From Octopus vulgaris (Eukaryota), in the NCBI GenBank assembly GCA_951406725.2, contig OX597820.1, positions 47,988,001-48,052,000 on the forward strand: 64,000 bases of DNA. Reading direction: 5' to 3'. The notes under the pieces are model-generated. The model searched no databases and was not told where the DNA came from. It was given only the letters and a program-made list of their open reading frames with translations. Numbering within the stretch: the stretch's first letter is position 1; each line of letters begins with the position of its first letter. A program made the position numbers and the translations under genes. Below are positions 1 to 62,440 of the stretch, piece by piece.

Positions 1-1155
1 TAAACATGTCGAATATCGTGAAGTCCATGCCTGGTTATAGATTGTAGATTACAGTCGGTTTGGTATTCGAATTTCACGAGCAAAAAGAAATACTTGCATG
101 CTTGAAGTGCATGTCTTTTAGCATGTAAGTGCGACATTCCTACAACTTATGCCAACACGAGAAAATTTGAGGATTTATGTTTTCAGTCGAACACATATAA
201 ACTAGTATATTCCTTTATACTTGTGACATAGCTCCATTTCGTACAAACGTTGCTACTTCCTATACTTTTCAAAATCTATATACAGTTCAAATGGAATTTT
301 ATACTGTACTTGATTCGGGATCTAAATGAAATATTGGTATGTGTGAATCTTATCTTAGAGATGTTTTCCAGCAGATTGCTACAGGTTTCTACTCTAGGAT
401 AATCAGACATTTAACTACTACATATATATCGACAACTATTTGCTATTCAATATACAGCCAGCTGAAATTAGTAGACTCCTTGTAAGAATTCGAGAATTGT
501 GATTCTGCAGGATTTCAAAGCTCTTGTTGGACATCTTGAAATATACATTGGAAGTAGGATAATATGTATTGATTATTACAGGGAGGGTTCTACTGATTTT
601 TGTGGATACATTTAGGAGTTGAAGAGGAATAAGCCAGATAACTGTTGAGAGTTGTTCTATGTAACTTCTGTAGTAGATACAAAAGAGGGCAAATTTACTT
701 GCAATTCATCATATTGCTAGATGACATTCGGTTTAGCTCTACTGCAGTGTAGAATACCTGCATTATGTATTTTTCTATTCCTCAATAGTTTACATATATG
801 CTTGTCACTATTGACTGTAAAATGCCAACAACCAAATGAAGATAACTATCATCTATCCGTTGAATTGAGCATTTCCCTTGCTCGTTATACTGAGTGAGAG
901 TATATACCTTCCTATGTATCATTCTATGTATACATTCTTAAGTACACCATTTCGTCAATCGCAGCAGCTTCCAAGCTTCACCAATTCAATTCTCGACTAA
1001 ATTAAAAACAACAGTTTTAAAGAGGATACCTCCTGCTACACTTTGGCATAAATAGTTTGAGATTTGTTTCAGTAATAAAAAAGTTACATCAAAATATCTG
1101 AAACCTCAGCGGGGGTAGTAAGGCACCTATTCATCTTCAATTAACATATTTTTTT

Positions 1156-1352
1156 CAGTTCTATATTTAAGAGATGAGGAATCATATACATTATTTATAT
1201 TTTTTTACAATTGACGGATATTTGTCCTCATCTTGTTTGTTGTTAACACAACGTTTCGGCTGATATACCCTCCAGCCTTCATCAGGTTTCTTGGGGAAAT
1301 TTTGAACCTAGGTTCTCTTCCTAAGGTATTTTTCGATGTTTTTGTTATTATT
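1156..1352 (-). mobile_element. Family A short repeat (Penelope terminal-repeat-like, hammerhead-bearing), 3' part
   Basis: Reverse complement matches 9826-10012 and 36370-36524 (ends ...CTTAAATATAGAACTG); contains the hammerhead motif. Confidence 0.85.
1245..1290 (-). ncRNA. Minimal type I hammerhead ribozyme motif (family A)
   Basis: Minus strand: GAAAC-CUGAUGA-A-GGCUG-(10 nt loop)-CAGCC-GAAA-CG-UU-GUGUU; palindromic ACGU helix III; one mismatch in stem I. Confidence 0.75.
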
Positions 1353-2020
1353 ATGTTTTCCCTTCTTTCTCCAAATTTTCTTCCAATTCTCACCGAGTGT
1401 TTTCCCTACACCTAGGGCAGAGAAGCTTATTGTATGCATTCCCAGATTACACAAGCAAATTAACAGGTAAAAATATGTATTTAAAAAATAAATAAATAAA
1501 TTCATGAATGGATGTTTGTTTTCACAGCGACAATGCTCTTCGCAGTTCTTGAGTCGTTCCAGTTAACACAATTTTTTGCACTTCCTGTAGGAATGGTAAG
1601 TCTGGTATCATTTATAAGTTTCAGTACCTTTTTTATCATTCCTAGAGATCCTACAATCACTGGTACTATGGTCGCCTTGAGATGCCACATTTTTTTCAAT
1701 TTCTATTAGCAGGCCTTTATATTTACTAATCTTGTCAAATTCTTTCGCCGCTATATTGTGATCGCAAGGAATACTCATATCAATTAATAAACACACCTTT
1801 TTGTTTGATCTTTTATAATAATATCCGGTTTATTAGTTTTGTCGGTATGTACGGAGAAGTCCCAGAGAATCGACACATTTTCTCCCTCAGTCACAGCTTC
1901 AGGATGTTGTTTATACCATTTGTCAGCGGTTATAATGCCGACATATTGTCCAGTGTAAATACTGACCGACTCTGTCATGTCTTGCTTTATATTCTACAGG
2001 TGCTAAGACTCTACACCCTG
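1353..2020 (-). mobile_element. Decayed 3' end of an R4/Dong-like (restriction-like endonuclease) non-LTR retrotransposon
   Basis: Frameshifted translation EYKARHDRVGQYLHW...ILWDFSVHTDK..KPDIII...LIDMSIP...KISKY..L..EIEKMW..ATIVPVIVGSLG...QKIVLTGT..LRRAL*; the 3' UTR recurs at 59799-59995. Confidence 0.85.
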
Positions 2021-2065
2021 AGATGAGGATAAATATCCGTCAATTGTAAATAATGTAAATAATAT
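2021..2065 (+). repeat. Family A fragment
   Basis: GATGAGGATAAATATCCGTCAATTGTAAATAATGTAAATAAT matches 9937-9980. Confidence 0.7.
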
Positions 2066-7876: not shown

Positions 7877-8630
7877 GGACCACAAGCAAAGGGAGACACA
7901 CACACACATTCATTCCTTTATATTGTCTTGAGAAGTATTCTGTGGACAAAAACGCCGTTGCTTAGAGGCTATTAACGGAAGTGCTTGTAAAATTTATGAT
8001 TGCAAGTGTCACAGGGAGAACTTGTGGCACTCATGCAGTTCAAGCATGACAAGGTATATATATTCACCTATTTTAACATAATCCTTCGTGGATGTACAAC
8101 GAAAGACACACAACCACGTTTACACTCACGTTTCCAGTCTTGTTTGCGCACACATACGCACACACACATACACGCACACACATGCTCACACACACGCATA
8201 CACACACACAGAGATACGCATAAAAAAACATTCATGCACACACATACATACATACATACACACATACATACATACACACATACATACATACATACATACA
8301 TACATACATACATACATACATGCATACATGCATACATGCATAGGTACATGCGTATGTATATAATTCTGGTTTACTCAATTGGTTAAGAAGTTCGTTTCGC
8401 AATCACATCCCGAAGTTGCATCTCATCATGCAACTTCAAATCGACCAAGGCTTGTGAAAGAAATTTAATACATACACACATGCATACATACTCGGTTTTA
8501 TGGAAAAAGCGCTAAAGAAATTAGCGATTCTTCAAATCAAATTTATTAGTGCCTCAGTGAAGATATGTAAGACATTCCAAAAATTCCCCATCTGAGATTC
8601 TTACGTAAATAGATGAACACTTTTGGGTGA

Positions 8631-8956
<326 letters not shown>

Positions 8957-9036
8957 CATATGGCGTAGTGGCTAAGATCTCGAGCTACAAATCCCCACGA
9001 TTCCGAGTTCGATTTCAGGTAGTGACCTGAATAATG

Positions 9037-9106
<70 letters not shown>

Positions 9107-9121
9107 GTAAATCTTTAAAAA

Positions 9122-9816
9122 AAACGAGGTAAATAAAACGTTCGAACAGAGATAGTCAGAAGCGACACCTACTGGGTCTGACTACGCTACATTGACAAAG
9201 GGCAAATACCCTGAAATGCGTCTGTAGCTGTCGGTCAAGTAGTGTGGAGAGACTGACCTCCCTTGTTCGAAGGTTATATGGATACAGTTTGTGTATCGAA
9301 TAGCTAACTTAAGGCGATGGCCTCATGGAGCTAATAAGCGGACAGCTTTTTTCTTATTTTTATAAGAATGCCATATTAGTATGGCGATAACTATTAATTT
9401 CCAGGAACGCTGCCGTAATCTCTTTTAGAGAGACTTAGTAATTTTAATATTTCTATTATTGAAACCAAGTGGATGTATTCCACCGAAACTAGGTAAATAA
9501 AACCTTCGAACAGAGATAGTCAGAAGCGACACCTACTGGGTCTGACTACGCTACATTGACAAAGGGCAAATACCCTGAAAAACGTCTGTAGCTGTCGGTC
9601 AAGTAGTGTGGAGCGATTGACCTCCCTTGTTCGAAGGTTATATGGATACAGTTTGTGTATCGAATAGCTGACTTAAGGCGATGGCCTCATGGACCTAATA
9701 AGCGGACAGCTTTTTTCTTATTTTTATAAGAATGCCATATTAGTATGGCGATAACTATTAATTTCCAGGAACGCTGCCGTAATCTCTTTTAGAGAGACTT
9801 AGTAATTTTAATATTT
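9122..9816 (+). repeat. Tandem duplication, 364-bp period, ~1.9 copies, highly self-complementary
   Basis: AGGTAAATAAAAC at 9127 and 9491; near-identical copies with only scattered substitutions. Confidence 0.95.
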
Positions 9817-9877
9817 GTATAATATCAACATCGAAAAATACCTTAGGAGTAAGAACCCGGGTTTGAAATTTCCCCAA

Positions 9878-9924
9878 GACACCTGATGAAGGCTGTAGGG
9901 TAAATCAGCCGAAACGTATGTGTT
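9878..9924 (+). ncRNA. Minimal type I hammerhead ribozyme motif (family A)
   Basis: GACAC-CUGAUGA-A-GGCUG-UAGGGUAAAU-CAGCC-GAAA-CG-UA-(U)-GUGUU; one extra base relative to the other copies. Confidence 0.7.
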
Positions 9925-10239
9925 AACAACAAACAAGATGAGAACAAATATCCGTCAAATGTAAATAATGTAAATAATGTACATAATTCCTCATCTCTTA
10001 AATATAGAACTGAAAAAAGAAATGTTGAAAATTGAACGACATTTGGGTGAATGCATCGAGAGTTCAACCAATACACCAACTCGACCACATATTTACAAAC
10101 ACCGGAAACACTTAACTCAAATAGCCTTATGACTTCCGTAGAGACTGGCTTCAACTCTCTTCAGGAGAACTTAAGTAAATCTAAAAAAAATTAAAAAAAT
10201 ACGCACATATATACATGCATGCTTACATACATACCTACT

Positions 10240-10656
10240 TTTATTTTTTTATGTGTTTCCGTCAGTTGACTGCAGACATGCTGGAGCACCGCATTTAGTC
10301 GAACAAATCGACCCCAGGACTTGATTTTTATAAGTTTAGAACTTATTCGATCCGTCTCTTTTTGCCGAACCACTAAGATACGGGGACGTAAACACACCAG
10401 CATCTGCTGCCAAGCAATGGTGGGGGTACAAATACAGACGCACAAAGACACACACACGCACACACATACACACACACATACACACACATACACAGCGGGC
10501 TTCTTTCAGTTTCTGTTCACCAAATCCACTCACAAAGCTTTGGTCGGCACGAGGCTATAGTAGAAGACACTTACCCAAGGTGCCACGCAGTGGGACTGAA
10601 CCTGTAACCATGTGGTTGGGAAGTAAGCTACTTACTACACAGCCTCTCCTACGCCT
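10240..10656 (-). mobile_element. tRNA-derived SINE family B (internal CA/TA microsatellite)
   Basis: Minus strand begins AGGCGTAGGAGAGGCTGTGTAGTAAG...GGTTCAGTCCCACTGCGTGGCACCTTGGG; more than 10 copies in the window. Confidence 0.9.
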
Positions 10657-11419
10657 ACATACATATCTAATACTATAAATGATCACATTATCTGGGACTA
10701 TAACAAGTTTGCAAGATCTTAAGATTTATATGCATATATATTATATATGTATGTATTCACGTGTGTGTATGTGATGTGTGTATGTGTGTGTGTGTGTATG
10801 CGCGTTTGTGTGTTATGTTATAACATAACAGATACGTAAATTGGAATTCACAATGCCTTTGTTTTGGCACTATGCTTGTTGGGAGGACAACTGTTGAAAG
10901 AATAAGAAGCATTCTAAAGATTTATGCCAAGTCGTACTGATGGATATGTGTGCGTGTGTGTGCGCGCTTGTGTATATATTTATACATATAGATACGCCCG
11001 CGCGCACACATACACACCATGCGGATGCATATCGTTGCTATTATGTTAAACTATCGTATATCCTAATTTGGCCAAAAACTTTGTTTTCAATATTTAATTT
11101 TGCTTTCAATAGCCGGTCCTTTTGGTCAAACTATCGTATCTCCAGCTGCTTCAGATGAAAATTGTCGAAGTGTAGTACAACGGTTTAGCATTTTTCAAAA
11201 GTGTAGTAAGCCCCACATACAACAGTTTTGCAAAAAATATTTCTGACTGAAAATATCATACATGCATGGACTTACGATCTTACGCACCCAACAAAGTATT
11301 ATTGTTAAGCTGAAACTGTTGCTTAAATGGAATGGTGGAACTATCTTTTCGTTTTCTGAAAGAGCAACGTTTTGGACTTACGACACTTTTGCATAAGAGT
11401 AACGATGTACATCTATTAA

Positions 11420-21800: not shown

Positions 21801-22336
21801 ATAACAAAGGGTGAAATTAATTAATTAAGAAGTAATCAGTAATTTCACCAAGTAGAATTTGGTATGTATAAGACCAATTCATGGTAAGTTTAAGTAATAC
21901 TAAATAATTAGGGTTCAGCAACGATCTGCCTCACCACACACCGAATTTAGAAATAGCAGTCAAAAAGTCTTGGCTATTCCTTCTACTTTAAAGGGAGATC
22001 TCAGTAGAACCAAAGCACTCAAGAACAAACCACGCAAGTAAAAGAGAAAGAAATGACGAAAATCATTCTATATTAAGTTGCCTACGGACGCGCGTTTCGG
22101 AATTAAGCCGGTATAGAGCATAAAAAATAAATAATTATACCTTACCCGACTATTTTCCTCATCAGCGTAGGATTCTTCAATTATAAATAATTGCGTCTCA
22201 ATTATTAATTATTGTGTATTAAATTTGAAGGCACTAGAAAATATCATTTCACCTCACGGTATCACGGTTAATGACTGCTATTTCTAAATTCGGTGTGTGG
22301 TGAGGCAGATCGTTGCTGAACCCTAATTATTTAGTA
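21801..22336 (-). mobile_element. Short hammerhead-bearing element with 65-bp perfect inverted repeat, bounded by (TA)n
   Basis: 21898-21962 is the exact reverse complement of 22272-22336; canonical hammerhead inside; (TA)n on both sides. Confidence 0.75.
22081..22171 (-). ncRNA. Canonical type I hammerhead ribozyme
   Basis: CCUACG-CUGAUGA-GGAA...(extended stem II incl. AGUCGG/CCGGCU)...UUCC-GAAA-CGCGCG-UC-CGUAGG; complete core, 6-bp stem I, GUC triplet. Confidence 0.9.
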
Positions 22337-22357
22337 TATATATATATATATATATAA

Positions 22358-22764
22358 ACTCTTTTACTCTTTTACTTGTTTCAGTCATTTGACCGCGGCC
22401 ATGCGGGAGCACCGCCTTTAATCGAGCAACTCGACCCCGGGACTTATTCTTTTGTAAGCCCAGTACTTATTCTATCGGTCTCTTTTGCCGAACCGCTAAG
22501 TAACGGGGACGTAAACACACCAGCATCGGTTGTCAAGCAATGCTAGGGGGACAAACACAGACACAAACATACACGCACACACACATATATATATACATAT
22601 ATACGACGGGCTTCTTTCAGTTTCCGTCTACCAAATCCACTCACAAGGCATTGGTCGGCCCGGGGCTATAGCAGAAGACACTTTCCCAAGGTGCCACGCA
22701 GTGGGACTGAACCCGGAGCCATGTGGTTGGTTAGCAAGCTACTTACCACACAGCCACTCCTGCG

Positions 22765-22767
<3 letters not shown>
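22358..22767 (-). mobile_element. SINE family B, full-length young copy
   Basis: CpG-rich and complete from the AGGCGCAGGAGTGGCTGTGTGG head to the (GTAAAAGA) tail. Confidence 0.92.
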
Positions 22768-22818
<51 letters not shown>

Positions 22819-23994
22819 CATATGTTAATATATTGTTATACATTCTCAAACATAAATAAACACGTGTGTAATCTATGCCATTATGCTTATCACCTACTTT
22901 GGCATGAATAAATTTCAGAGATCTGAATAAATAACCTAGACTCTTCTGATGGGTTTCATCTAAGTGTGGGTTGTTTGTTTTATATAGTTTAAAACAATAT
23001 TAATAAAATTTGAAAGAAATTCATTGTCTCAATCTAGACATAGTATAATGACAGTTCTGTTCAGCTGTCTAGAAATATATATATATATACATATATATAT
23101 TTATATATGTAGTTGAACGTTTTGTGTTGATCCGAGCAACTGGTAGGATGAATGCAAGGCAGTGAACCAGCTATTCTGGAATCCATGAACCACGGCTGTC
23201 AACGAGTGAAATAAGATCAAGTGGAGTTAATGAATGTAGTGACCATTGTATAAAGGAGTAGAAAATAAACGTTTATTTAAACCCGTCAGTACCACGGTTT
23301 GAGTTTGAATAGGAAGCGTTTTTTTTTCTTTTGTGTCTTTAAGTGCACAAGTCCATAACGTGCAGAAACGTCATACATTGATAAATGGAAGAGGGAATAC
23401 CACTTTGAAGCGGGTGTCAATGGGTTGGCCTATCATACAGTGTAGCGTGTTTCGAATGTTTTCGCGAAAGTGATCGGCAAGACAACGATATGATTCACTA
23501 TATAATGCTGAAAGACGTGCAGTAGAGTTATTGGGTAATGTGTTACTGAGACATAGGTTTCGCAGGGATTGTAAGATTGCTGCTGCAGAGGCAGTTATTC
23601 CATCGGCTGCGAGTGCAATTAATACAAGTCTTATCGATCCAAACCAACACCAATCTTCTTAGTTTCGGTTTTCGCTAATCTGTGCTATGTATCTGTGAGA
23701 GGAAGAGACCACTTGTCTTTATTTAGACATTTCACTTGAAGAAGGAAAACTCCAATATAGCATAACAGATCTTCTTTGGAAGCAAATGCATACGTTGTTA
23801 AATGGTCGGGATTGTCCCTGTGCTAGGCATTTCCTCACTGCTGATCATTGAGAAGTGTTGTCGTATTTCTGACGCGAATTGGCTTCCACAACCTCTTGCG
23901 TATGTGTGTGAACTGCGATGTTATTCACACCAATTTGGGATATAAATGAAACGCAATCACACCCTGAATATTGATTCCTTAACCACTGTACTAA

Positions 23995-34524: not shown

Positions 34525-36524
34525 AAGATACCATCCTTGTAAATCTTAGGAAGACCGTACATGTGTGGTAGTTTACAGTGGTGTTGAGTCAGTTGTCTGT
34601 ACCTCATTGGTGTAAAATAATCCTTGTTCTTGATCAAGATCTGTGATAACTTCCTCTCTGTTTTCAATGTAGTGTCTTTCTTTACTCTGCTGTAGTAATA
34701 TCAAAAATTCTGACTAAACTGAAAAGTTGGCAAGTCTTATAAGTGATGGTAGCTACAGCAAAGTTAAGAAATATCCTACTTTGAAAACAGAAAGGAAGTT
34801 GTCATCGATCTTGATCAAGAACAAGGATCACTTTGCACCAATGAAGTACAGACAACTGACTCAATACTATAGTAAACTACCACACATGTCTTCCTCAGAT
34901 TCACAAGGTTGGTATTCCATTAAGACCTATAGTGAGCTGTAGAGATTCAGCATGTCATCCATTGAGCCGCTTCCTTTCCATTAGCAGGAAAGTCAACATC
35001 GTACGTGAAGAATTCCACCCACTTCACAGAATTGATCAAGAATACCACCATTGAATCCAACCAGATGGCGAGTCTAGATGTGATAAACCTATTCACCAAA
35101 GTTCCAACTGGTGAAGCACTATCGGTGATTCAAGAAAATTAGTGACAGATACCCATCTAAAAGAACGCACTAGTATATCAATAAGTAACTTGATGGAAAT
35201 GTTGACCTTCTGTGGAGAAACTACCGACTTCGGTATGGACACTGATATATATCGACAAGAGGAGTGTTTAGCTATGGTTTCGCTATTATAACCGGTAATA
35301 GCCAAGATATACATGGAATACTTTGAGAATTTGTCTTTAGGGTCAACACCATTAAAACCAATACTATGGCTACGATATGTTGATGACACCTTTATACTCT
35401 GGCCCCACTAAGATGTCCAAATGCTGTTAGATCATGTGAACTCAATAAAGCCATCCATACAGTTCACAATGGAAAAGGAAAAAGACAATCAGCTGGCATT
35501 CCTGGACGTATTAATAACTCGCACAAAGTATGGATTCAGGATATCCGTACACCGCAAGCCGACGTCTACTGGACGAGACCCCAACTTCAATTTCCATCAT
35601 CCATAGTGTAAAGAGAGGGATTTCTCAGTGTCTAAAACATCGTGCAAAGAATATAAGTAGCGATCGTGATACACACCACGAAGAAATGATCAAGCTCAAT
35701 AACGATCTGGTAAGCAATAACTACCACAAAAGTATAATATCCACTCCAATTATGAAGAAGAGAGAAGATGAGGCAAATAAACCGTCCACCCTATGTGAAA
35801 GGCCTCTCCGAAAAGATACAAAAGATATGCGTCCCATATGACATCAGGACAGTATTCAAGAGTATTACAACACTTCGCAAATATTTTCTTCGAGTAAAAC
35901 CACAATTAGAAGTGAATATGCCCAAAGACTGTGTGTACACCATCCCATGCACCTGTGGTAGGCTATACAGGGCGAAACATGCCACCCCCTCAAAATAAGG
36001 GAAGACGAACATCGTAAAGCTGGGACACAAGAAGATATTGATAAATCGGGTATAGCTGATCGTGTACGCAAAAATGGAGACCACCTCTCCCTGTGGGATG
36101 AAGTTGAAATAATAGACAGAGAACACCCCTGGAAAATACAAAAAGTAAAAGAAGCAGCACATGTACTAGAACACAACACCTCCTAAGCAGACCAAGTGCA
36201 GATATGAACAGCATATGGGAACTGGTATTAAGCAAGGATAGAAAAACGTTAGATTTATAAGCCCTAAAATTGCCCACGGGAATATGGCATAGTGGTTAAG
36301 AGCGCGGGCTACTAACCCCAAGATTCCGAGTTCGATTCCAAGCAATACTTAATAATACTTAATAATAATAACATAGAACCTAGGTTCAAAATTTCCCCAA
36401 GACACCTGAAGAAGGCTGGAGGGTATATCAGCCATAACAACAAACAAGATGAGGACAAATATCCGTCAATATATAAATAATGTAAATATTGTACATAATT
36501 CCCCATCTCTTAAATATAGAACTG
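34525..36524 (+). mobile_element. 5'-truncated decayed Penelope-like element (RT + GIY-YIG) with inverted 5' segment and family A 3' terminal repeat
   Basis: SLDVINLFTKVP (35071), YRQEECLAM..LSPVIA, WLRYVDDTF (35366), FTMEKE..LAFLDV, CVYTIPCTCGRLY (~35930), KVKEAAH; 34525-34696 is an inverted copy of 34753-34917; 36280-36524 is family A. Confidence 0.92.
36284..36345 (+). promoter_or_regulatory. tRNA-like internal Pol III promoter (A and B boxes) in family A
   Basis: TGGCATAGTGG, anticodon-like arm GGG-CTACTAA-CCC, GAGTTCGATTCC. Confidence 0.65.
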
Positions 36525-38080: not shown

Positions 38081-38115
38081 CTTTCTGATGAAGAGCGTAG
38101 GCTCGAAACATAAAA
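38081..38115 (+). ncRNA. Minimal type I hammerhead motif
   Basis: CUUU-CUGAUGA-A-GAGC-GUAG-GCUC-GAAA-CA-UA-AAAU; ACAU could be CpG-decayed ACGU. Confidence 0.65.
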
Positions 38116-40316: not shown

Positions 40317-40874
40317 ACTGATGAATATTTCTACTTTATCACGATTTACGGTATCGTATTTAATAAAATACGTCTCATACGTGGGTGAATGATATCAAGT
40401 ATCTTTTTCGAAAACAAACTTCTAAATGTATCCCATCCACCTAAAAATACGTACCTAACATAAAATTTAAAGTCTTGGAGAAATAACTATATTCCTGACA
40501 TGTGTCTATGTTGTTATAATCGGGTTCTCAGGCGCCAATGGATAGAAGTTGATGAGCCAGATAAACTGCCCTATGTGTTGCTGGTCTAGGCACAGTGGCA
40601 AAGCTTATAATTACTGATGCTCGTAGAGTTTACTCTGACCCTGCAATCATGCTAGTCACAGAAAGTCATGTGTAAACATAATACTTTCAAATCTGTCACA
40701 TTACCACATGGAAACTGCTGTCGCTGAATTTGAATATCCCGTCGGAATTCCCACTGATACCAGCATCATCTCTTCTCTATCACGTGGATTTGACGTAAAA
40801 GAAAAAAAATGCGTGACTTGAACTGAGCTATGGCAACCTAAATATTCTCTCCTAGAACCCATTTGTTATGTTAT

Positions 40875-41105
40875 TCTTTTACATATTTCAGTCATTTGAC
40901 TGCGGCCACGTTAGAGCACCACGTTTAGTCGAACAGATTGGCTGCAGGACTTATACTTTCTAACTTTGTTACTTATTCTCTCGTTGTCTTTTGCCGAACC
41001 GCTAAGTTAGCGGGCATATAAACACACCAGCATTGGTTGTCAAGCGATGGTGGTGGTGGTGGCGGCGGAGGGACAAATACACACACACACACACAAATAT
41101 ATGTA

Positions 41106-41156
<51 letters not shown>

Positions 41157-41280
41157 GACGGGTCTCTTTCATTTTCCGTCTACCAAATCTACTCACAAGG
41201 CATAGGGCATTAATCGGCCCGAGGCTATAGTACTATAGTAGAAGACAATTGCCCAAGGTGCCACGAGGTGGAACTGAAAA
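40875..41280 (-). mobile_element. SINE family B
   Basis: Family blocks in order with an internal (TA)n. Confidence 0.88.
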
Positions 41281-41342
41281 CAGATCCATTCAGCATTATC
41301 AGCCACAAGACGTGTTCAGGCAGAAGTGAACTTCAAGTTTAG

Positions 41343-42516: not shown

Positions 42517-42774
42517 CCGAGCAGTTATTTTGTGCTGATGAAGAGAAAAATCCCGAAACCATTGGTACACAGATATTGGTCTGAGGTGAGTGGGGACACT
42601 GAGCTCCCTTGATCGAAAATATAAGGACGCAGATAGTTCATCAATATCCAATAGAAAACGATGTTTTCTGGGGCTAAATAACGGTAACATTCGTCATAAT
42701 CAGGACTGCCACATTATGTTGGCAAATAATCTTTACTCTCTCTCTCACTCTTTCTCTCTGTATATATATGTATA

Positions 42775-42957
42775 TTCTTTTGTCTTTTTATTTGTTTCAG
42801 TTATTTAACTGCGGCCATGTGGAGCACTGCCTTTAGTCAAGCAAATCAACCCCAGGATTTATTCTTTGTAATCCTAGTACTTATTCTATCGGTCTGTTTT
42901 GCCGAACCGGTAAGTAAACACATCAACATCGGTTGTCAAGCGATGTTGGGGGGACAA

Positions 42958-42992
<35 letters not shown>

Positions 42993-43115
42993 CGACGGGC
43001 TTCTTTCAGTCTCCGTCTATCAAATCCACTCACAAGGCTTTAGTCGGGCCAAGGCTATAGTAGATGACACTTGCCAAAGGTGTCACGCAGTGGAACTGAA
43101 CCATGTGGTTGGTAA
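42775..43115 (-). mobile_element. SINE family B (head truncated next to the Penelope element)
   Basis: Family blocks in order. Confidence 0.88.
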
Positions 43116-43126
43116 TCAAGGAGAAT

Positions 43127-45820
43127 GTAGAAAAGTAATACGCGTGTTGATATGTATAAGGAAAATAGGAGAAGGTAGAAAATGCTAAAATAAGTTTAGC
43201 ATGAAGTACATGTTAGTGCCCGTTTCCGTCTTTTAGACAGTTTGAACTAAGAGAAAAATAAGAAAAACAATTAAAGAAGAGAAAATAAATGAAATGAAAT
43301 GTTTTGTAAATATTTCCATAGTCCTCAAGTAGTGTGTCTCTCTCTCTCTCTCTCTCTCTTCCTTTGTGAATGTTTGGTCGGTAGGTATATAGCAAATCTG
43401 AAGAAATAGTTTTATGAATACAGGGAATTGATGGCTTAAAAAGGAGCAGCCGAGTGAGGAGAAGAAGATGGAGAAGAAGAAGAAGGAGGAGAAGAAGGAG
43501 GAGAAGAAGGAGGAGAAGAAGGAGAAGAAGAAGAAGGAGGAGAAGAAGGAGGAGAAGATGAAGAAGGAAGAGAAGTGGGAGTAGTGAAAGAAGAGGAAGG
43601 AGCAGAAAGAAAAGAAAAAATACAGGAGTGGTGTTACACAGTAGATTCTTCATGGAATCTTTTTTAATGGTAAAATTACCTAAAAGTGACCTGGTGTGGT
43701 CGTAGCCGTAGTGGTTGGAATTGTCCTAACTTTTTGTAGTAGTTTCATCTGTGGCGGAAGCATTCAAAAGATGATTACATTTTGCGATAAAATATGCTTC
43801 ATTGCTAATGCGCTTATTATAGGTTGCATTGCCCCTGAATTTATAGAGGGGAAAAATTCTGAACTCGGGTTCTTCGTTTGTAGCGCAAATATCGATGTGC
43901 TCGCTCAATCCTATTCTTTTGTATTCCCATATTTTAATCTGGAATCTATGTACCTTCATCCTCTGGCGTAGACTATTTTTAGTTTGACCAATATATTGTT
44001 CTCGACACCCTGAGCAAGTTAATACAAATATTAGATTTTCCGAATCAAATGTGAAGTAGTTTTTCATTGTAAAACTTGACCCTGTTTGCAGGAGAATTCC
44101 GATCCCTCATTTAGGTTGACACATATACCACAGTTAGGTCTTCCGCATTTTTTACTGTTGCTCAATGCCATTGACGTGTGTTCTTGGGCCTGTGGTAGAA
44201 TACTTTCATTGACTTGGGTTGTCTTTTACTCTTTACGTTCTGGTGTACGTTCTGAGGATTTGATCAACTCTAGGGTCCCTGTTTAGTAAAGGGATGTTCT
44301 GGAGGATGGTGTCGAAGTCCTCATTGTTTATGGGATTGTGTTGGATATGTATGGTAGGGCTTTTGGTTGTAAATTCCTCTTTAGTTTGGGGTGTCTGAGT
44401 TCGTGGATGAGTTGTAGGGCATGTTGAAAGGCTATATCAGTTAGTGATGGTGGGGTAGTTCCTGCTGATGAATGTATCCTTTTGTCCTTGTCGTGTGTCC
44501 CTAGTTCTTGTGTCATATAGTATAGTGCAAATTATTTTTGCCAGGTAGTAAGAGATATTCATTCTAGTGTGTCTGGAGTGGCATGTGTTGAATGGCAGGT
44601 ATTGCTTGGAGTCCGTGGGCTTATAATATATATCTGTTTCTATTTTGCTGTTGGATTTTCTTAATGAGGATTGCGGGGAATGGAAGTTGTTGATGGCTAT
44701 ATTCCAGTCTAAATTTAATGTTTATGTCAGCTACATTTATAAGTACTTGAAATTCTTTAAGTCTCTCTATACTTTCGTGCCAAAGAGTAAAACGTCATCT
44801 AGAAATCTTTTCCAGTTATTTTCTTTGTACAGGGAGAATGGGTTTCCATATTTTCCTAGTACTATACGATAAAGATTGATTTCTAGGTACTCCATGACTA
44901 GGTTACCAAAATAAGGGGCCATTCGCGTGCTCATCACAGTCCCTGATCTGTCGATTGAAGTTGTCATTAAATACGAAGGAGTTATTCTCCAAGACGAATT
45001 TTAGCCCTTCTATTACGAATTTTATTTCGATGCTCTGTGTGAGTTCATTGCAGAATAGAGGTTGACTACATCAAAAGATACTAGTATGTTGTTTTTATCT
45101 ATTGTTTCAGGGAGGTGATTGAGCATATCTAGGTCGTCTCTTATGTAACTTTTGATATGCTTCAGGAATAGTTTTAAGAGGATGTCTAAAATGTTACTGA
45201 GGCGGTGAAATTCGCATGCGGAGCCTGCTATTATGGGTCTTAATTCGAGGTCATTAAGAGTAGGTACCTTGACTGTTATATCTGTGGCTCCGCTGCAGGC
45301 GTCACTTATTTTTTCCCTTTAGTGTATCTTAAGAATACCGTAGATTTTGACTGGATTTATTATTAAAGTTAGTCATATAATCGTATTTCTTGTCGGTGAG
45401 ACCTTTTCCGTATAGGTCTAACATTGTTATTAGGCTTATTATTTTCTGTTGACTGTAGTGTTGTACCTTTTCATAATATGTTGTGCCTTCTAAAATAGAT
45501 AGTACTAGGGCTAAATAATATACCGTGTACATTAAGACTACTGCACTCCCTTTACCAGCCTTTTCGATTGGTATTGTTTTATTATGCTTTAATCTGTTCA
45601 GCTCAGCCCATTAATTTTTGCTGAAGTTTGACTTGTGTTTTTGTTTGTGTATATGCTGATATGGATAATTCGTGATGTGTTCACAGAAATGTATCTCGTG
45701 TGGGAGTATGATATATAGAAGGTAGAAAAGTAACACACGAGTCGATATGTATAAGGAAAATAAGACAAGGTAGAAAATGCTAAAATAAGTTTATCAGGAA
45801 GTATATTTTAGTACCGGTTC
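43127..45820 (-). mobile_element. Decayed Penelope-like element, Neptune-type (RT, Cys-rich linker, GIY-YIG), with ~95-bp terminal direct repeats
   Basis: LELRPIIAG, LVSFDVVNLYS, SGTVMSTRMAPYFGNL, WKRFLDDV, KCGRPNCGICV, NLIFVLTCSGCREQYIGQT..LRQRM..H; direct repeat 43127-43226 / 45722-45820. Confidence 0.9.
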
Positions 45821-48049: not shown

Positions 48050-48245
48050 TTCTTTTATCATTTTTATTCATTTACGTGTTTCAGTCATTTGACTGCAGCC
48101 ATGCTGGAGCACCACCTTTAGTCGAGCAAATCGAACCCGGGAGTTATTCTGTGTAAGCCTAGTACTTATTCCATTGGTCACTTTTGTCTAACCGCAAGAT
48201 TACGGGGAAACAACAATATCGGTTGGGGAACAAACACAGACGCAC
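48050..48245 (-). mobile_element. SINE family B, 3' half
   Basis: GTTTCAGTCATTTGACTGCAGCCATGCTGGAGCACC... Confidence 0.85.
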
Positions 48246-48279
48246 ACATACATACATACATAGATACATACATACATAA

Positions 48280-54075: not shown

Positions 54076-54107
<32 letters not shown>

Positions 54108-54124
54108 AATGTACAACATATATA

Positions 54125-54541
54125 TCTTTTACTCTTTTACTCGTTTCAGTCATTTGACTGTGGCCATGTTGGAGCAATACCTTTCTAGTCGAGCAAATCG
54201 ACCCCAGGACTTATTCTTTGGAAGCTTGGTACTTATTCTATCGGTCTCTTTTGCCGAACCGCTAAGTTACGAGGACATAAGCACACCAGCATCAGTTGTC
54301 AATCGATGTTGGGGAGGGGAACAAACACACACACACAAACATATAAAGACCCATACACATATGTACTTACACATATACGACGGGCTTCTTTCAGTTTCCG
54401 TCTACTAAATCCACTCACAAGGCTTTGGTCGGCCCGAGGCTATAGTAGAAGACACTTGCCCAATTTGCCACGCAGTGGGACTGAACTCGGAACCATGTGG
54501 TTGATAAGCAAGCTACTTACCACTCAGCAACTCCAACGCCT
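54125..54541 (-). mobile_element. SINE family B, full length
   Basis: Complete family match. Confidence 0.9.
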
Positions 54542-54662
54542 ATGTATGTATATGTATATATATATAATGTATATGTATGTATATATATGTATATGTATAT
54601 ATGTATATATATATCTATATGTATGTATATATATATATATGTGATGTGTGTGTGTATGTATA

Positions 54663-54701
<39 letters not shown>

Positions 54702-55830
54702 GAGAGAGAGAGAGATAGAGAGCGATAGAGAAAAAGAGTGATGGGGTGAAGAGGACAAAAGAAAAATTCTGTGTCAAAGGTTGTTTATATTCTAAATTTT
54801 TATATGAGTAGAAAACTGTGTTTCAACACTATAAGTTGTGGTTGGTGGAGTCGGGTACGTTCGATAAAGAAACAGTTCTCATGAAAAACCAAAACTTGGC
54901 TTTTTCTATAGTTTTTGCAAGCGGAATTATTAATTCTAAATTGCTGCTTTATTTATTACTGATGAAACGTATCTATGTTAGCAAGATGTAAGTAAAGCAA
55001 CAACGATTTGGTACATACTGGCGCCGTGTAAACTACAGATACATAGACTCACTAAAAACGACCATTCAACTTAAATACATAAAATACACCCCAAACAGAA
55101 GTTATGCAGTAAAGGAGCTCACATACTCCCCCTCCACCACCCCGGATACAACACAGAGAATACACAATCAAATATACATCCATTGAGACTGACAAATACA
55201 TAACATCTAATCATACACGTATATATACAGAGAAAAAAGGATATATAGATATTGCACAAGCACACGCACGAACATACACACACTCACACACACACATATA
55301 CATACAGAGAGGAAATTGGAGGTGGGAGGAAGGAGAACAAAACAATAATAATAATAGTGAGAGAGAGAGGGAGGATGTGAGAGACACAGAAAGATGAGAG
55401 GAAAAATGTTGTGTCAAAGGTTAATTATATTTTAAATGATTTACATCATTCAAATGAAGTTCGCAGCTATTTACCAGTTATAGCTCCACGTTATTTCCCC
55501 GTTAAATGATTCACGTCATTCCTGTGGAGTTTAATGCTATTTCCCCGCCATAGATCTTTTACAAGATTGAGCTAACCTTGAACCATCAAACTACACAATC
55601 TTTTCTTTATATATACCAACACTACCACCACCACCACCACCACCACATACATTCCAATACATTCATTATCAAACATACCACGACTACATACAGATCAAAA
55701 TATAAACTCCACTTAAGCTATTATCTCCAGCGCCACATTCGATCTAAACAGAATAAATACCCGAAACGTACACCACTACACAACCACTACCACATCGTAT
55801 ACAACGTATCTCTATCTATCTATCTATCTT

Positions 55831-55900
<70 letters not shown>

Positions 55901-55901
<1 letters not shown>

Positions 55902-56608
55902 GCGAGTGTCGCGTTGCTCTCAAGCAACTCTGCCATCCTGGGTCGACCTTAAGTGACTTCAACACAACCAAAGTATTCTATAGGGGTTTAGTGGAGGGGA
56001 GGTACGACGACGAGCTCGGGGCGAACCTGGACGTCGACGAGGAGTACCTGACCCGCCTGTTCAGGACGACTTTCGGGCCAGGGCCCATGGACAACTTCCA
56101 GAGATCCCTGGCCTGGCAGTGCTACCGAGAAGCGCTACCCGTTCGGGATAAGCTCTACAGACATGGCTCGAGAAACACGGGGCCGACCTGCCCGAGATGC
56201 GGTCAGAGCGACGAAACCGTTCTGCACGCACTCGTTCAGTGTCCAACAATTTCCGACCTGTGGGCTTATGTCGAACAACTGCTGTCACGTGTGGGACGAG
56301 TCGGTTTATCAGCTGAGTCTATCGTCAATATTGTCACGCCTCCTTCCTTCAAACGGGAAGGAAGAGCTATTTTCATCATCCTTGTGGCTATGGCGAAAGA
56401 ATGTATCTGGTGGACGCGTCTGAAAGGATTGGAGACAAACACTTTCCTCTCTGGTCAATCTCTCATCAACTTCTTCAAGTACCACTTGAAAAGGAAAGTG
56501 AGAGTAGAGAGGCAAGTTTTGTCTAGCGAATGTTTTAAAAAAAGATGGGTGAATGTAGCAAGAATGGTACGTATGAATGACGAAGCCACCTTGAGCATAG
56601 TCCTATGA
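55901..56608 (+). CDS. C-terminal part of LINE ORF2 (zf-RVT / CCHC region), partial
   Basis: Frame open from 55901: TTKVFYRGL...LAWQCYREALPVRDKL...CPRCGQSDETVLHALVQC...AKECIWWTR. Confidence 0.8.
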
Positions 56609-57042: not shown

Positions 57043-57083
57043 TTGTGGGTGGTTTGGTAGACGGAAACTGAAAGAAGCCCGTC

Positions 57084-57117
<34 letters not shown>

Positions 57118-57342
57118 GTGTGTGTGTATGTATGTGTATATGTTTGTGTGTCTGTGTTTATCCCCCAACATCGCTTGACAACCGATGCTGGTGTGTTTAC
57201 GTCCCCGTAACTTAGCGGTTCGGCAAAAGAGACCGGTAGAATAAGTACTAGGCTTACAAAGAATAAGTCCTGGGGTCGATTTTCTCGACTAAAGGCGGTG
57301 GTCCAGCATGGCCACAGTCAAATGACTGAAACATGTAAAAAA
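57043..57342 (+). mobile_element. SINE family B lacking the head
   Basis: TTTGGTAGACGGAAACTGAAAGAAGCCCGTCG...AAATGACTGAAAC. Confidence 0.9.
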
Positions 57343-57735
57343 AATATGTACATACTCCCTGTATACGCGCGAGCCAATGAAAATAAACAACTATACATAT
57401 CAGCAGTGATCCTATTATTTAGTGATGCCAGGGTTTATCAAGATTTTCAAGGCGTTTAGATTGTGATAACAAAGCTGTTTCTGGTCGGCATGTTAGTCCG
57501 GCGCAAGATTAACCTCTAAGTAGAAGAGGTACTAATTTTAAATTGAGTGTAGTGGAGTAATAAGAAGTGATGTCCCTTTCTCAAGGACAAAAAAACACTG
57601 CTCATTCGGAGATGGTAAGTAATCCCAATACTCTAACCACCAGGTCCCACACCTTCAGAAACATTTACACATGAACTTATGAACAGAATACGTGTTTACA
57701 CACACACACACACACACACAAGCACATGTATGTGA

Positions 57736-62011: not shown

Positions 62012-62225
62012 TTCTCTTTTCTCTTTTAATTGTTTCAGTCATTTGACTACGCCCATGTTGGAGCAACGCCTTTAGTTGAGCAAATCGACCCCAGGACTTA
62101 TTCTTTGTAAGCCTAGTACTTATTCTATCCGTCTCTTTTGCCGAACCGCTAAGTGACGGAGACGTAAACAGACCAACATCGGTTGTCAAGCGTAGTTGGG
62201 GGGACAAACACAGACACACGCATAT

Positions 62226-62283
<58 letters not shown>

Positions 62284-62440
62284 TGCGGGCTTCTTTCAGT
62301 TTCCGTTTACCGAATCCACTCTCAAGGCTTTGGTCGCGTCGAGGTTATAGTAGAAGACACCCGGCGCCACGCAGTGGGAATTAACCCAGAACCATGTGGT
62401 CGGTAAGCAAGTTACTTACCACACAGCCACTCCTACGCTC
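62012..62440 (-). mobile_element. SINE family B, full length
   Basis: Complete family match. Confidence 0.9.

Follow-up and report, generated by a model that had tools for sequence, protein, structure and literature searches.

A 364-bp tandem unit in the octopus genome, probably a non-LTR retrozyme, with a hammerhead motif built on a U3-A8 pair

What kind of element is a non-coding unit of 364 bp that stands in nearly two head-to-tail copies next to an (AAT)n tract of the octopus genome? A preliminary description, made from the letters of the locus, had taken it for a retrozyme-like copy of a circular or structured RNA of an unrecognised family. The unit was analysed within the stretch of 64 kb in which it lies (the window), and variation of its family was read from contigs of public sequencing runs. 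Each copy bears a type I hammerhead motif in which U3-A8 replaces the usual C3-G8, and the evidence set out below argues with good confidence for a non-LTR retrozyme. The features and their coordinates are collected in Table 1.

The tandem unit

The TRF program reported a repeat at 9122-9820 with a period of 364, 1.9 copies and 97% matches, in agreement with the tandem first proposed, and a direct repeat with a spacing of 364 was also detected in the window. Pairwise comparison of the two copies (9122-9459 against 9486-9823) likewise gave 97%, with differences at 9 places within the first 335 aligned bases. The GC content of the unit is 39%. No ORF of at least 90 amino acids overlaps 9122-9820, which upholds the claim that the unit is non-coding. 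No second copy was found elsewhere in the 64-kb window, a blastn comparison of the unit with phages gave no match, and searches with exact patterns of the unit retrieved nothing from metagenome contigs, prokaryote genomes or viral contigs.

Table 1. Positions of the putative retrozyme unit, its predicted parts and the neighbouring repeats in the window
Feature	Position	Strand	Basis or remark
Putative retrozyme unit, copy 1 (complete, 364 bp), including the linker 9460-9485 to copy 2	9122-9485	+	TRF; direct repeat; contigs from two DNA runs
Putative retrozyme unit, copy 2 (partial)	9486-9823	+	TRF; pairwise comparison; ends at the equivalent of 9459
3' domain: short hairpins and linker	9279-9485	+	z -3.45; family depth
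Predicted monomer between both cut sites, 364 nt	9223-9586	+	Prediction from hammerhead sites
Interrupted rod of 41 bp extending hammerhead helix I, copy 1	9137-9275	+	Computed fold
Equivalent rod of 43 bp, copy 2	9501-9639	+	Computed fold
Type I hammerhead motif, copy 1	9186-9228	+	Relaxed descriptor; pair probabilities; variants
Helix I, copy 1	9186-9191/9223-9228	+	6 bp
Core U3-U4-G5-A6-N7-A8-A9, copy 1	9192-9198	+	Letters T-T-G-A-C-A-A
Helix II, copy 1	9199-9202/9209-9212	+	4 bp; 6-nt loop
G12-A13-A14-A15.1, copy 1	9213-9216	+	Letters G-A-A-A
Helix III and loop, copy 1	9216-9221	+	Two-pair helix; 2-nt loop; short palindrome
GUC triplet, copy 1	9220-9222	+	Predicted cut after 9222
Type I hammerhead motif, copy 2	9550-9592	+	Same core: 9556-9562, 9577-9580, 9585-9586
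GUC site, copy 2	9584-9586	+	Predicted cut after 9586
(AAT)n tract 5' of the insertion	9030-9106	+	TRF; 25.7 units
5' junction repeat, 19 nt	9104-9122 and 10172-10190	+	17 of 19 identical
tRNA-like heads, back to back	8888-8956 (-), 8957-9029 (+)		80% complementary; box A/B-like motifs
Third tRNA-like head	36282-36342		Box A/B-like motifs
Different repeat with a Penelope-type minimal hammerhead, outside the 364-bp unit	9826-10036	+	C3-G8 core at 9883-9914; helix II preceded by an extra base
Mirror copy of the minimal-hammerhead repeat	8628-8784	-	Core 8727-8696; helix II damaged
Further copies of the minimal-hammerhead repeat	1136-1348 (-), 36375-36524 (+)		Sequence comparison
Dispersed (CA)n-bearing repeat copies	10201-10789, 22336-22833, 40871-41289, 42761-43120, 48062-48278, 54095-54659, 57043-57343, 62014-62438

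The family in public sequencing runs

Part of the stretch is contained in 20 of the 24 listed runs (8 studies, 4 organism labels; best share 0.46), none of which is on record as RNA and whose contigs carry no strand, end or level. Four runs were mapped onto 9100-9500: the DNA runs X1 and X4, and the runs X7 and X11, which are RNA by guess. In the DNA runs 2,785 (X1) and 2,065 (X4) contigs were placed on one unit. Summed depth, which is not the same as copy number, amounts to 33-37 for the edge bin that comes first and ranges from 24,000 to 1.6 million inside the unit, and the unit belongs to a highly repeated family. Three further runs guessed to be RNA hold next to none of its words.

The preliminary description had held that confinement to a single locus would count against it, but the family is multi-copy and has head-to-tail joints elsewhere. 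Joints in which 9490 is followed by 9127, a step back of 364, were seen in 2 contigs of X1 and 1 contig of X4, a variant joint was present in 1 contig of each DNA run, and linker letters precede 9122 in contigs of X7 and X11. Depth over the hammerhead is 24,000-277,000, against 0.6-1.6 million over 9338-9491 (about 3-65 times lower in the DNA runs), so most related sequence lacks this hammerhead or has diverged there. Such a drop would mean truncation, divergent subfamilies or relatives with a different 5' domain.

The hammerhead motif

At the tip of a predicted rod, each copy bears a type I hammerhead motif whose U3-A8 pair, at 9192/9197 in copy 1 and 9556/9561 in copy 2, provides the Watson-Crick pairing that positions 3 and 8 require. 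The change from C3-G8 to U3-A8 is a natural covariation, rare but found in several examples and active in vitro (PMC3088659). The rest of the consensus core (U4, G5, A6 and A9; G12, A13, A14 and A15.1; U16.1 and H17), together with an open helix I, is present in both copies. Copy 1 and the family majority have the canonical metazoan sizes (PMC4209133), with a helix I of 6 bp, a helix II of 4 bp, a helix III of 1-2 bp and a small palindromic loop. A long helix II and an extra base that separates position 9 from 10.1 distinguish the minimal form; here the offset is 0 and helix II has 4 bp. One consensus pair is not found, since the base of helix II is A-U (9199/9212 and 9563/9576) instead of G10.1-C11.1, a pair that is highly conserved but not absolute in hammerheads (PMC4209133). 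In the family, 9212 is C at 37% of depth in each of the DNA runs, and one contig of X11 (record 9) has G-C at the base of helix II.

A relaxed descriptor that admits any Watson-Crick 3:8 pair, composed after the motif had been seen yet from the general hammerhead consensus, matches both copies; of 20,000 shuffles of the unit it matches 1, 3 and 9 when helix I is set at 6, 5 and 3 pairs. The five printed pairs of helices I and II have pair probabilities of 0.9-1.0, and the hammerhead-compatible fold, with the core opened, lies 1.5 kcal/mol above the MFE. The complete hammerhead core occurs on one strand only of the unit.

Conventional searches miss this motif because its core has U3-A8 instead of C3-G8. 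Scanning both strands of the unit for CUGANGA...GAAA, with the junction included, gave no match. Rfam returned 0 matches over the whole window at the gathering score, and at E values up to 10 it yielded no hammerhead family and only hairpin-like chance matches. Since Rfam also misses the neighbouring minimal motifs with a C3-G8 core, the test is insensitive here.

Helix III is the weak part of the motif at this locus. In copy 1 it has a U-G wobble, with T at position 15.2 (9217); the family has C there in 96% and 99% of depth in the two DNA runs, and this majority base improves helix III. In copy 2, 9581-9582 are altered and only the A15.1-U16.1 pair is kept. Between copy 1 and copy 2, a dimeric helix III would make 4 of its 6 pairs; metazoan type I motifs of the canonical form are thought to act as dimers through a palindromic helix III (PMC4209133). 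With a wobble in one copy and a broken helix in the other, the hammerhead here is likely weakened, and the locus is likely to be a weakened copy of its family.

Predicted fold

The comparison of the fold with shuffled sequences, set beforehand as a check, came out in favour of structure, with z values of -5 to -7. For copy 2 against dinucleotide shuffles, z was -5.08 for the plus strand as RNA, -6.89 for the minus strand as RNA and -5.46 for the plus strand as DNA, and 0 of 100 shuffles were as good in each of the three settings. Ten control stretches from the window ranged from +1.26 to -3.53. The 5' domain folds as an interrupted rod of 41-43 bp, with a free MFE of -53.2 kcal/mol in copy 1 and -58.6 kcal/mol in copy 2; 9133-9278 folded alone gave a z of -5.0.

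The preliminary description had drawn a cloverleaf here, in which a 12-bp stem (9501-9512/9628-9639) closes three hairpins and further hairpins follow. The stem and all the listed hairpins are present as sequence, but the cloverleaf is not the preferred arrangement: when forced, it reached -42.8 kcal/mol in copy 1 and -49.6 kcal/mol in copy 2, leaving the rod 9-11 kcal/mol more stable. Its first hairpin is also disrupted by the most frequent variant of the family, at 9154, which makes up 51% and 98% of depth in the two DNA runs, and the cloverleaf was rejected. Of the three enclosed hairpins only the middle one was right; GCTACA/TGTAGC with the inner AGGG/CCCT corresponds to helices I and II of the hammerhead.

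A 3x1 internal loop (9183-9185 opposite 9229) adjoins helix I with its 6 bp, and loop 2 is 6 nt long. These two loops are candidates for a tertiary contact, and we take them to resemble those of the Schistosoma motif. The predicted circle of 364 nt has a computed energy of -110.9 kcal/mol with 62% of its bases paired; its z is -5.9, and none of 100 shuffles folded as well.

Variation across the family

Among the variants, 40 of 58 rows were inspected; five second alleles were dropped and 35 were scored. In these 40 rows the 12 core bases are free of variants, and N7 and loop 2 vary. Fifteen of the variants lie in the rod. Judged against the window's own partner base, 7 of them preserve pairing, 5 fall on unpaired bases and 3 disrupt a pair, where 33% disruption is expected of random transitions. 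This sparing of rod pairing, like that of the core, is suggestive and not significant alone. G-U pairs are tolerated in family variants of the rod. In the 3' domain 6 of 20 variants break pairs, so the fold of that domain is without support from variation.

Changes on both sides of a helix were found in one contig, record 9 of X11. Both 9181 and 9231 are changed, and a set of changes at 9196-9212 turns the A-U at the base of helix II into G-C with U3 and A8 retained. Two of the three pair-breaking rod variants are mended in this record by a second change; its double changes were assigned to one contig by their equal depth and their distance from its ends. One loose-end consensus of X7 (2 contigs, agreement 0.65) has A at position 3.

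In X7, read along the hammerhead strand, A-to-G accounts for 17 of the 41 changed places and T-to-C for 3. The corresponding numbers are 7 and 4 of 29 in X1, 5 and 5 of 26 in X4, and 8 and 5 of 42 in X11. The A-to-G excess in X7 has a p of 0.003 against base content and of 0.06-0.18 against the DNA runs, and it is absent in X11. A-to-I editing is strong in cephalopods. The excess may mean that the hammerhead strand is edited, or it may stem from a diverged copy, X7 being a run guessed to be RNA and with no matched DNA.

Ends and insertion site

Beyond the loose ends listed there are 290 more. Among those listed, contigs run into (AT)n behind 9459 in three of the four runs (14 contigs in X4, 5 in X7 and 2 in X11), and also behind 9393-9398 in X7 and X11. 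Copy 2 of the window terminates at the equivalent of 9459 as well; the patch that precedes this end, TAT-T/A-AT, could base-pair with a target rich in AT. The upstream ends differ, only two having been seen: 9122, and 9264 in one contig of X7 with (TA)n ahead of it. One fixed downstream end combined with differing upstream ends is the polarity of target-primed reverse transcription, and the end pattern would fit such a reaction on RNA of the hammerhead strand. Within the predicted monomer, this fixed end is situated about 237 nt past the cut site and beside the AU-rich patch. A circular or multimeric template fits, because the end falls within the monomer and the inserted length is above one unit. 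This recurrent end gives a handle on where and how retrozyme RNA is primed.

That the unit was inserted in an (AAT)n tract, as had been described, holds for the 5' side; the 3' side has just a short degenerate remnant. No target-site duplication was found directly at the unit ends. A repeat of 19 nt spans the 5' junction (9104-9122), and 10172-10190 is its sole other match of 17 or more within the window. This pair is possibly a long target-site duplication or the trace of a template jump; in the former case the retrozyme would have arrived together with the neighbouring repeat.

Along the plus strand the insertion has the order tRNA-like head, (AAT)n, retrozyme and minimal-hammerhead repeat, and a mirror head, microsatellite and repeat lie on the minus strand. 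"tRNA-like" is our reading of box A/B-like motifs; ARAGORN found 0 tRNA genes. The association of tRNA-like head, (AAT)n and minimal-hammerhead repeat occurs three times with the head, twice back to back about 8956/8957 (within 8628-9106 and 9826-10036) and once at 36282-36524, and a further time behind a LINE-like end (1136-1348). It is possibly a hammerhead-tailed SINE, or consists of separate pieces that meet at (AAT)n. A run of six T at 9347-9352 would stop polymerase III once it had passed the first hammerhead, which means that dimer RNA from this locus would have to be made in another way.

Other features of the window

A second U3-A8 hammerhead-like motif, with a 5-bp helix II, a palindromic helix III and 3 helix I pairs, lies on the minus strand at 28481-28445; a (TA)n tract follows about 105 bases downstream. 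Its sequence is unrelated to the 364-bp unit, and neither a Penelope-like ORF nor an ORF family was found upstream of it. A minimal hammerhead-like motif with a C3-G8 core and a weak helix I is found at 38085-38112 (+).

A decayed Penelope-like element occupies 43726-45610 (-), with a GIY-YIG match at E 0.0016, below the Pfam cut-off. The decayed ORF at about 34900-36270 (+) is presumably Penelope-like by its motifs, and the tRNA-like head at 36282 follows directly after its end. A further candidate, 1340-2030 (-), was dropped as a Penelope ORF; its translation resembles a LINE end with a restriction-like endonuclease, which we take by its motif to be an R4/Dong-like end of a non-LTR retrotransposon, and it abuts the minimal-hammerhead repeat at an AAT-rich joint. 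Pfam assigned 0 families in all six read-through frames examined. A piece of a retroelement ORF at 55757-56608 (+), whose relatives carry PF13966, had 7 matches. Argonauta hians and Octopus bimaculoides are named among them, four are without a name, and the last, from a metagenome bin, bears the label Herbaspirillum and is probably host DNA that entered the bin. By these named relatives the window looks like octopod DNA. The window also has at least 8 copies, 70-86% alike, of a dispersed repeat that measures about 300-550 bases and encloses a (CA)n stretch.

Proposed cycle and alternative explanations

The unit has the sequence features that define a non-LTR retrozyme: a tandem of units in the range of about 150-450 bp, GC under 45-50%, no ORF, multiple copies and a self-paired circle. 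A type I hammerhead is found in consecutive units, with helix III damaged in copy 2. The retrozyme part of the preliminary description thus stands, given a hammerhead in each copy, a multi-copy family and head-to-tail joints; the idea of an unrecognised family of structured RNA does not, since the motif is a hammerhead with the published U3-A8 pair and the fold is a rod. Descent from a piece of a larger transposon, which the preliminary description had named among its refutations, keeps some probability.

A cycle of hammerhead cleavage, circle formation and copying by a Penelope-like reverse transcriptase has been proposed for non-LTR retrozymes (PMC7229834). Applied to the octopus unit, RNA transcribed through a tandem array would undergo self-cleavage at every hammerhead, probably as a dimer because helix III in the majority form has two pairs and is palindromic. 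The resulting 364-nt piece would be ligated into the circle whose computed fold is given above. A Penelope-like reverse transcriptase and endonuclease would likely copy this circle, more than once round, into AT-rich microsatellites, with priming at the AU-rich site. The mobiliser would thus likely be a Penelope-like element; decayed Penelope-like elements are present in the window, neither of them linked to the unit by sequence. Against assumed activity stands the observation that 8 of 9 predicted Xenopus dimers were uncut in vitro (bioRxiv 10.64898/2026.07.22.740005).

The unit could instead be a pseudo-LTR that belongs to an autonomous Penelope-like element, such as one of a Neptune type targeting (TA)n, in which case the 1.9 copies would be a 5'-truncated partial tandem formed without a free circle. 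Terminal repeats of Penelope-like elements do bear hammerheads, make partial tandems and favour microsatellites (PMC8557442), the animal U3-A8 pair was first observed in such an element (PMC4209133), and the 3' half of the unit is covered far more deeply than the hammerhead half. The two readings also grade together, as Li et al. derive retrozymes from repeats of this kind (bioRxiv 10.64898/2026.07.22.740005). The end of the unit, however, joins its own start with no ORF between, both here and in the two DNA runs, and it has no similarity to the Penelope-like remnants of the window. Its canonical hammerhead, with helices of 6 bp and 4 bp, is without the additional base ahead of helix II by which such repeats are recognised, and we consider a pseudo-LTR improbable. 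No reverse transcriptase or GIY-YIG ORF adjoins the unit at this locus, though one may do so at others. Growth in place by unequal crossing-over or slippage, which would make the unit a satellite-like repeat with a dead hammerhead spread only by DNA duplication, would account for copies that are 97% alike and for changes in helix III of both hammerheads at the locus; local tandem amplification has been proposed by Li et al. (bioRxiv 10.64898/2026.07.22.740005). Yet the dispersed ends that enter different (AT)n flanks at one recurrent point argue for insertion and not for array growth. The double-sided changes in one contig preserve the ribozyme fold, and the family majority base restores helix III, so that a satellite is very improbable.

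The good fold obtained with DNA parameters (z -5.46) and the degenerate inverted repeat formed by the 5' domain would also be expected if the unit were a non-autonomous DNA transposon of Helitron-like or foldback type, with hairpins that function in the form of single-stranded DNA. Such an element is hardly credible in view of a full hammerhead core on one strand only, insertion ends without terminal inverted repeats, and G-U pairs tolerated in the rod. The recurrent end also lacks what we take to be a Helitron-type terminus.

Non-LTR retrozyme remains our reading of the unit. A broader proposal goes with it as a tentative and rather doubtful extension: that octopods carry a very large retrozyme family built wholly on U3-A8, with abundant 364-nt circles and a rod that serves as a substrate for A-to-I editing, and that surveys keyed to CUGANGA undercount animal retrozymes and maybe mislabel some Penelope-like clades as ribozyme-free. 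At least one survey that reported Penelope-like clades without canonical hammerheads did use CUGANGA for its core search (PMC8557442). In the hammerhead core, one compensatory change is enough to conceal an entire high-copy family: both Rfam and the CUGANGA string are blind to it.

Comparison with known systems

We found no report of a cephalopod retrozyme or of a tandem retrozyme with a U3-A8 core, in literature from which subscription papers were mostly outside and where a family may be listed in a supplementary table. Neither octopus nor cephalopods are mentioned in the main text of PMC7229834. For the giant squid genome 235 Rfam hammerhead matches are given (PMC6962438). The word "ribozyme" does not appear in the main text of an octopus RNA survey, in which circles were annotated by back-splice junctions (PMC9699675). 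Natural hammerheads with U3-A8 have the same covariation as the unit, and the consulted passages of their description name no repeat family based on it (PMC3088659).

The vertebrate retrozymes of Li, Clavereau and Pollet (bioRxiv 10.64898/2026.07.22.740005) are defined as tandem repeats with a type I hammerhead in consecutive units, a definition that fits the octopus unit; their 35 genomes, with no mollusc among them, were searched with descriptors for the canonical and minimal models. The Cercyon Penelope-like elements of Schistosoma mansoni (PMC4209133) have the same U3-A8 covariation in a type I motif with a dimer-type helix III, and these too are missed by the usual descriptor. About 1,300 U3-A8 motifs, mostly single, are described in that species (PMC4209133). 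The Cercyon motifs are minimal, with a helix II of 7-8 bp, a helix I of 4-5 bp and an extra base before helix II, whereas the octopus unit has canonical helix sizes and a motif in every tandem unit.

The closest resemblance is to the metazoan non-LTR retrozymes (PMC7229834), which are likewise non-coding tandem units of a few hundred bases with GC under 45%, a single type I hammerhead per unit, a self-paired predicted circle and no LTR, and which coexist with Penelope-like elements, as here. By size the nearest is the Mytilus galloprovincialis family of 350-390 bp, which the unit also matches in GC content and self-pairing (PMC7229834). The octopus unit differs from the metazoan retrozymes in its U3-A8 core, in the A-U pair at the base of helix II, in the lengthening of helix I into a rod of 41-43 bp and in its probable octopod host. 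With it the non-LTR retrozymes gain a probable member from the cephalopods, and the system itself is of a known kind: the activity of U3-A8 hammerheads and the non-LTR retrozymes of other animals were already known, and what is likely new is a U3-A8 core in a tandem retrozyme.
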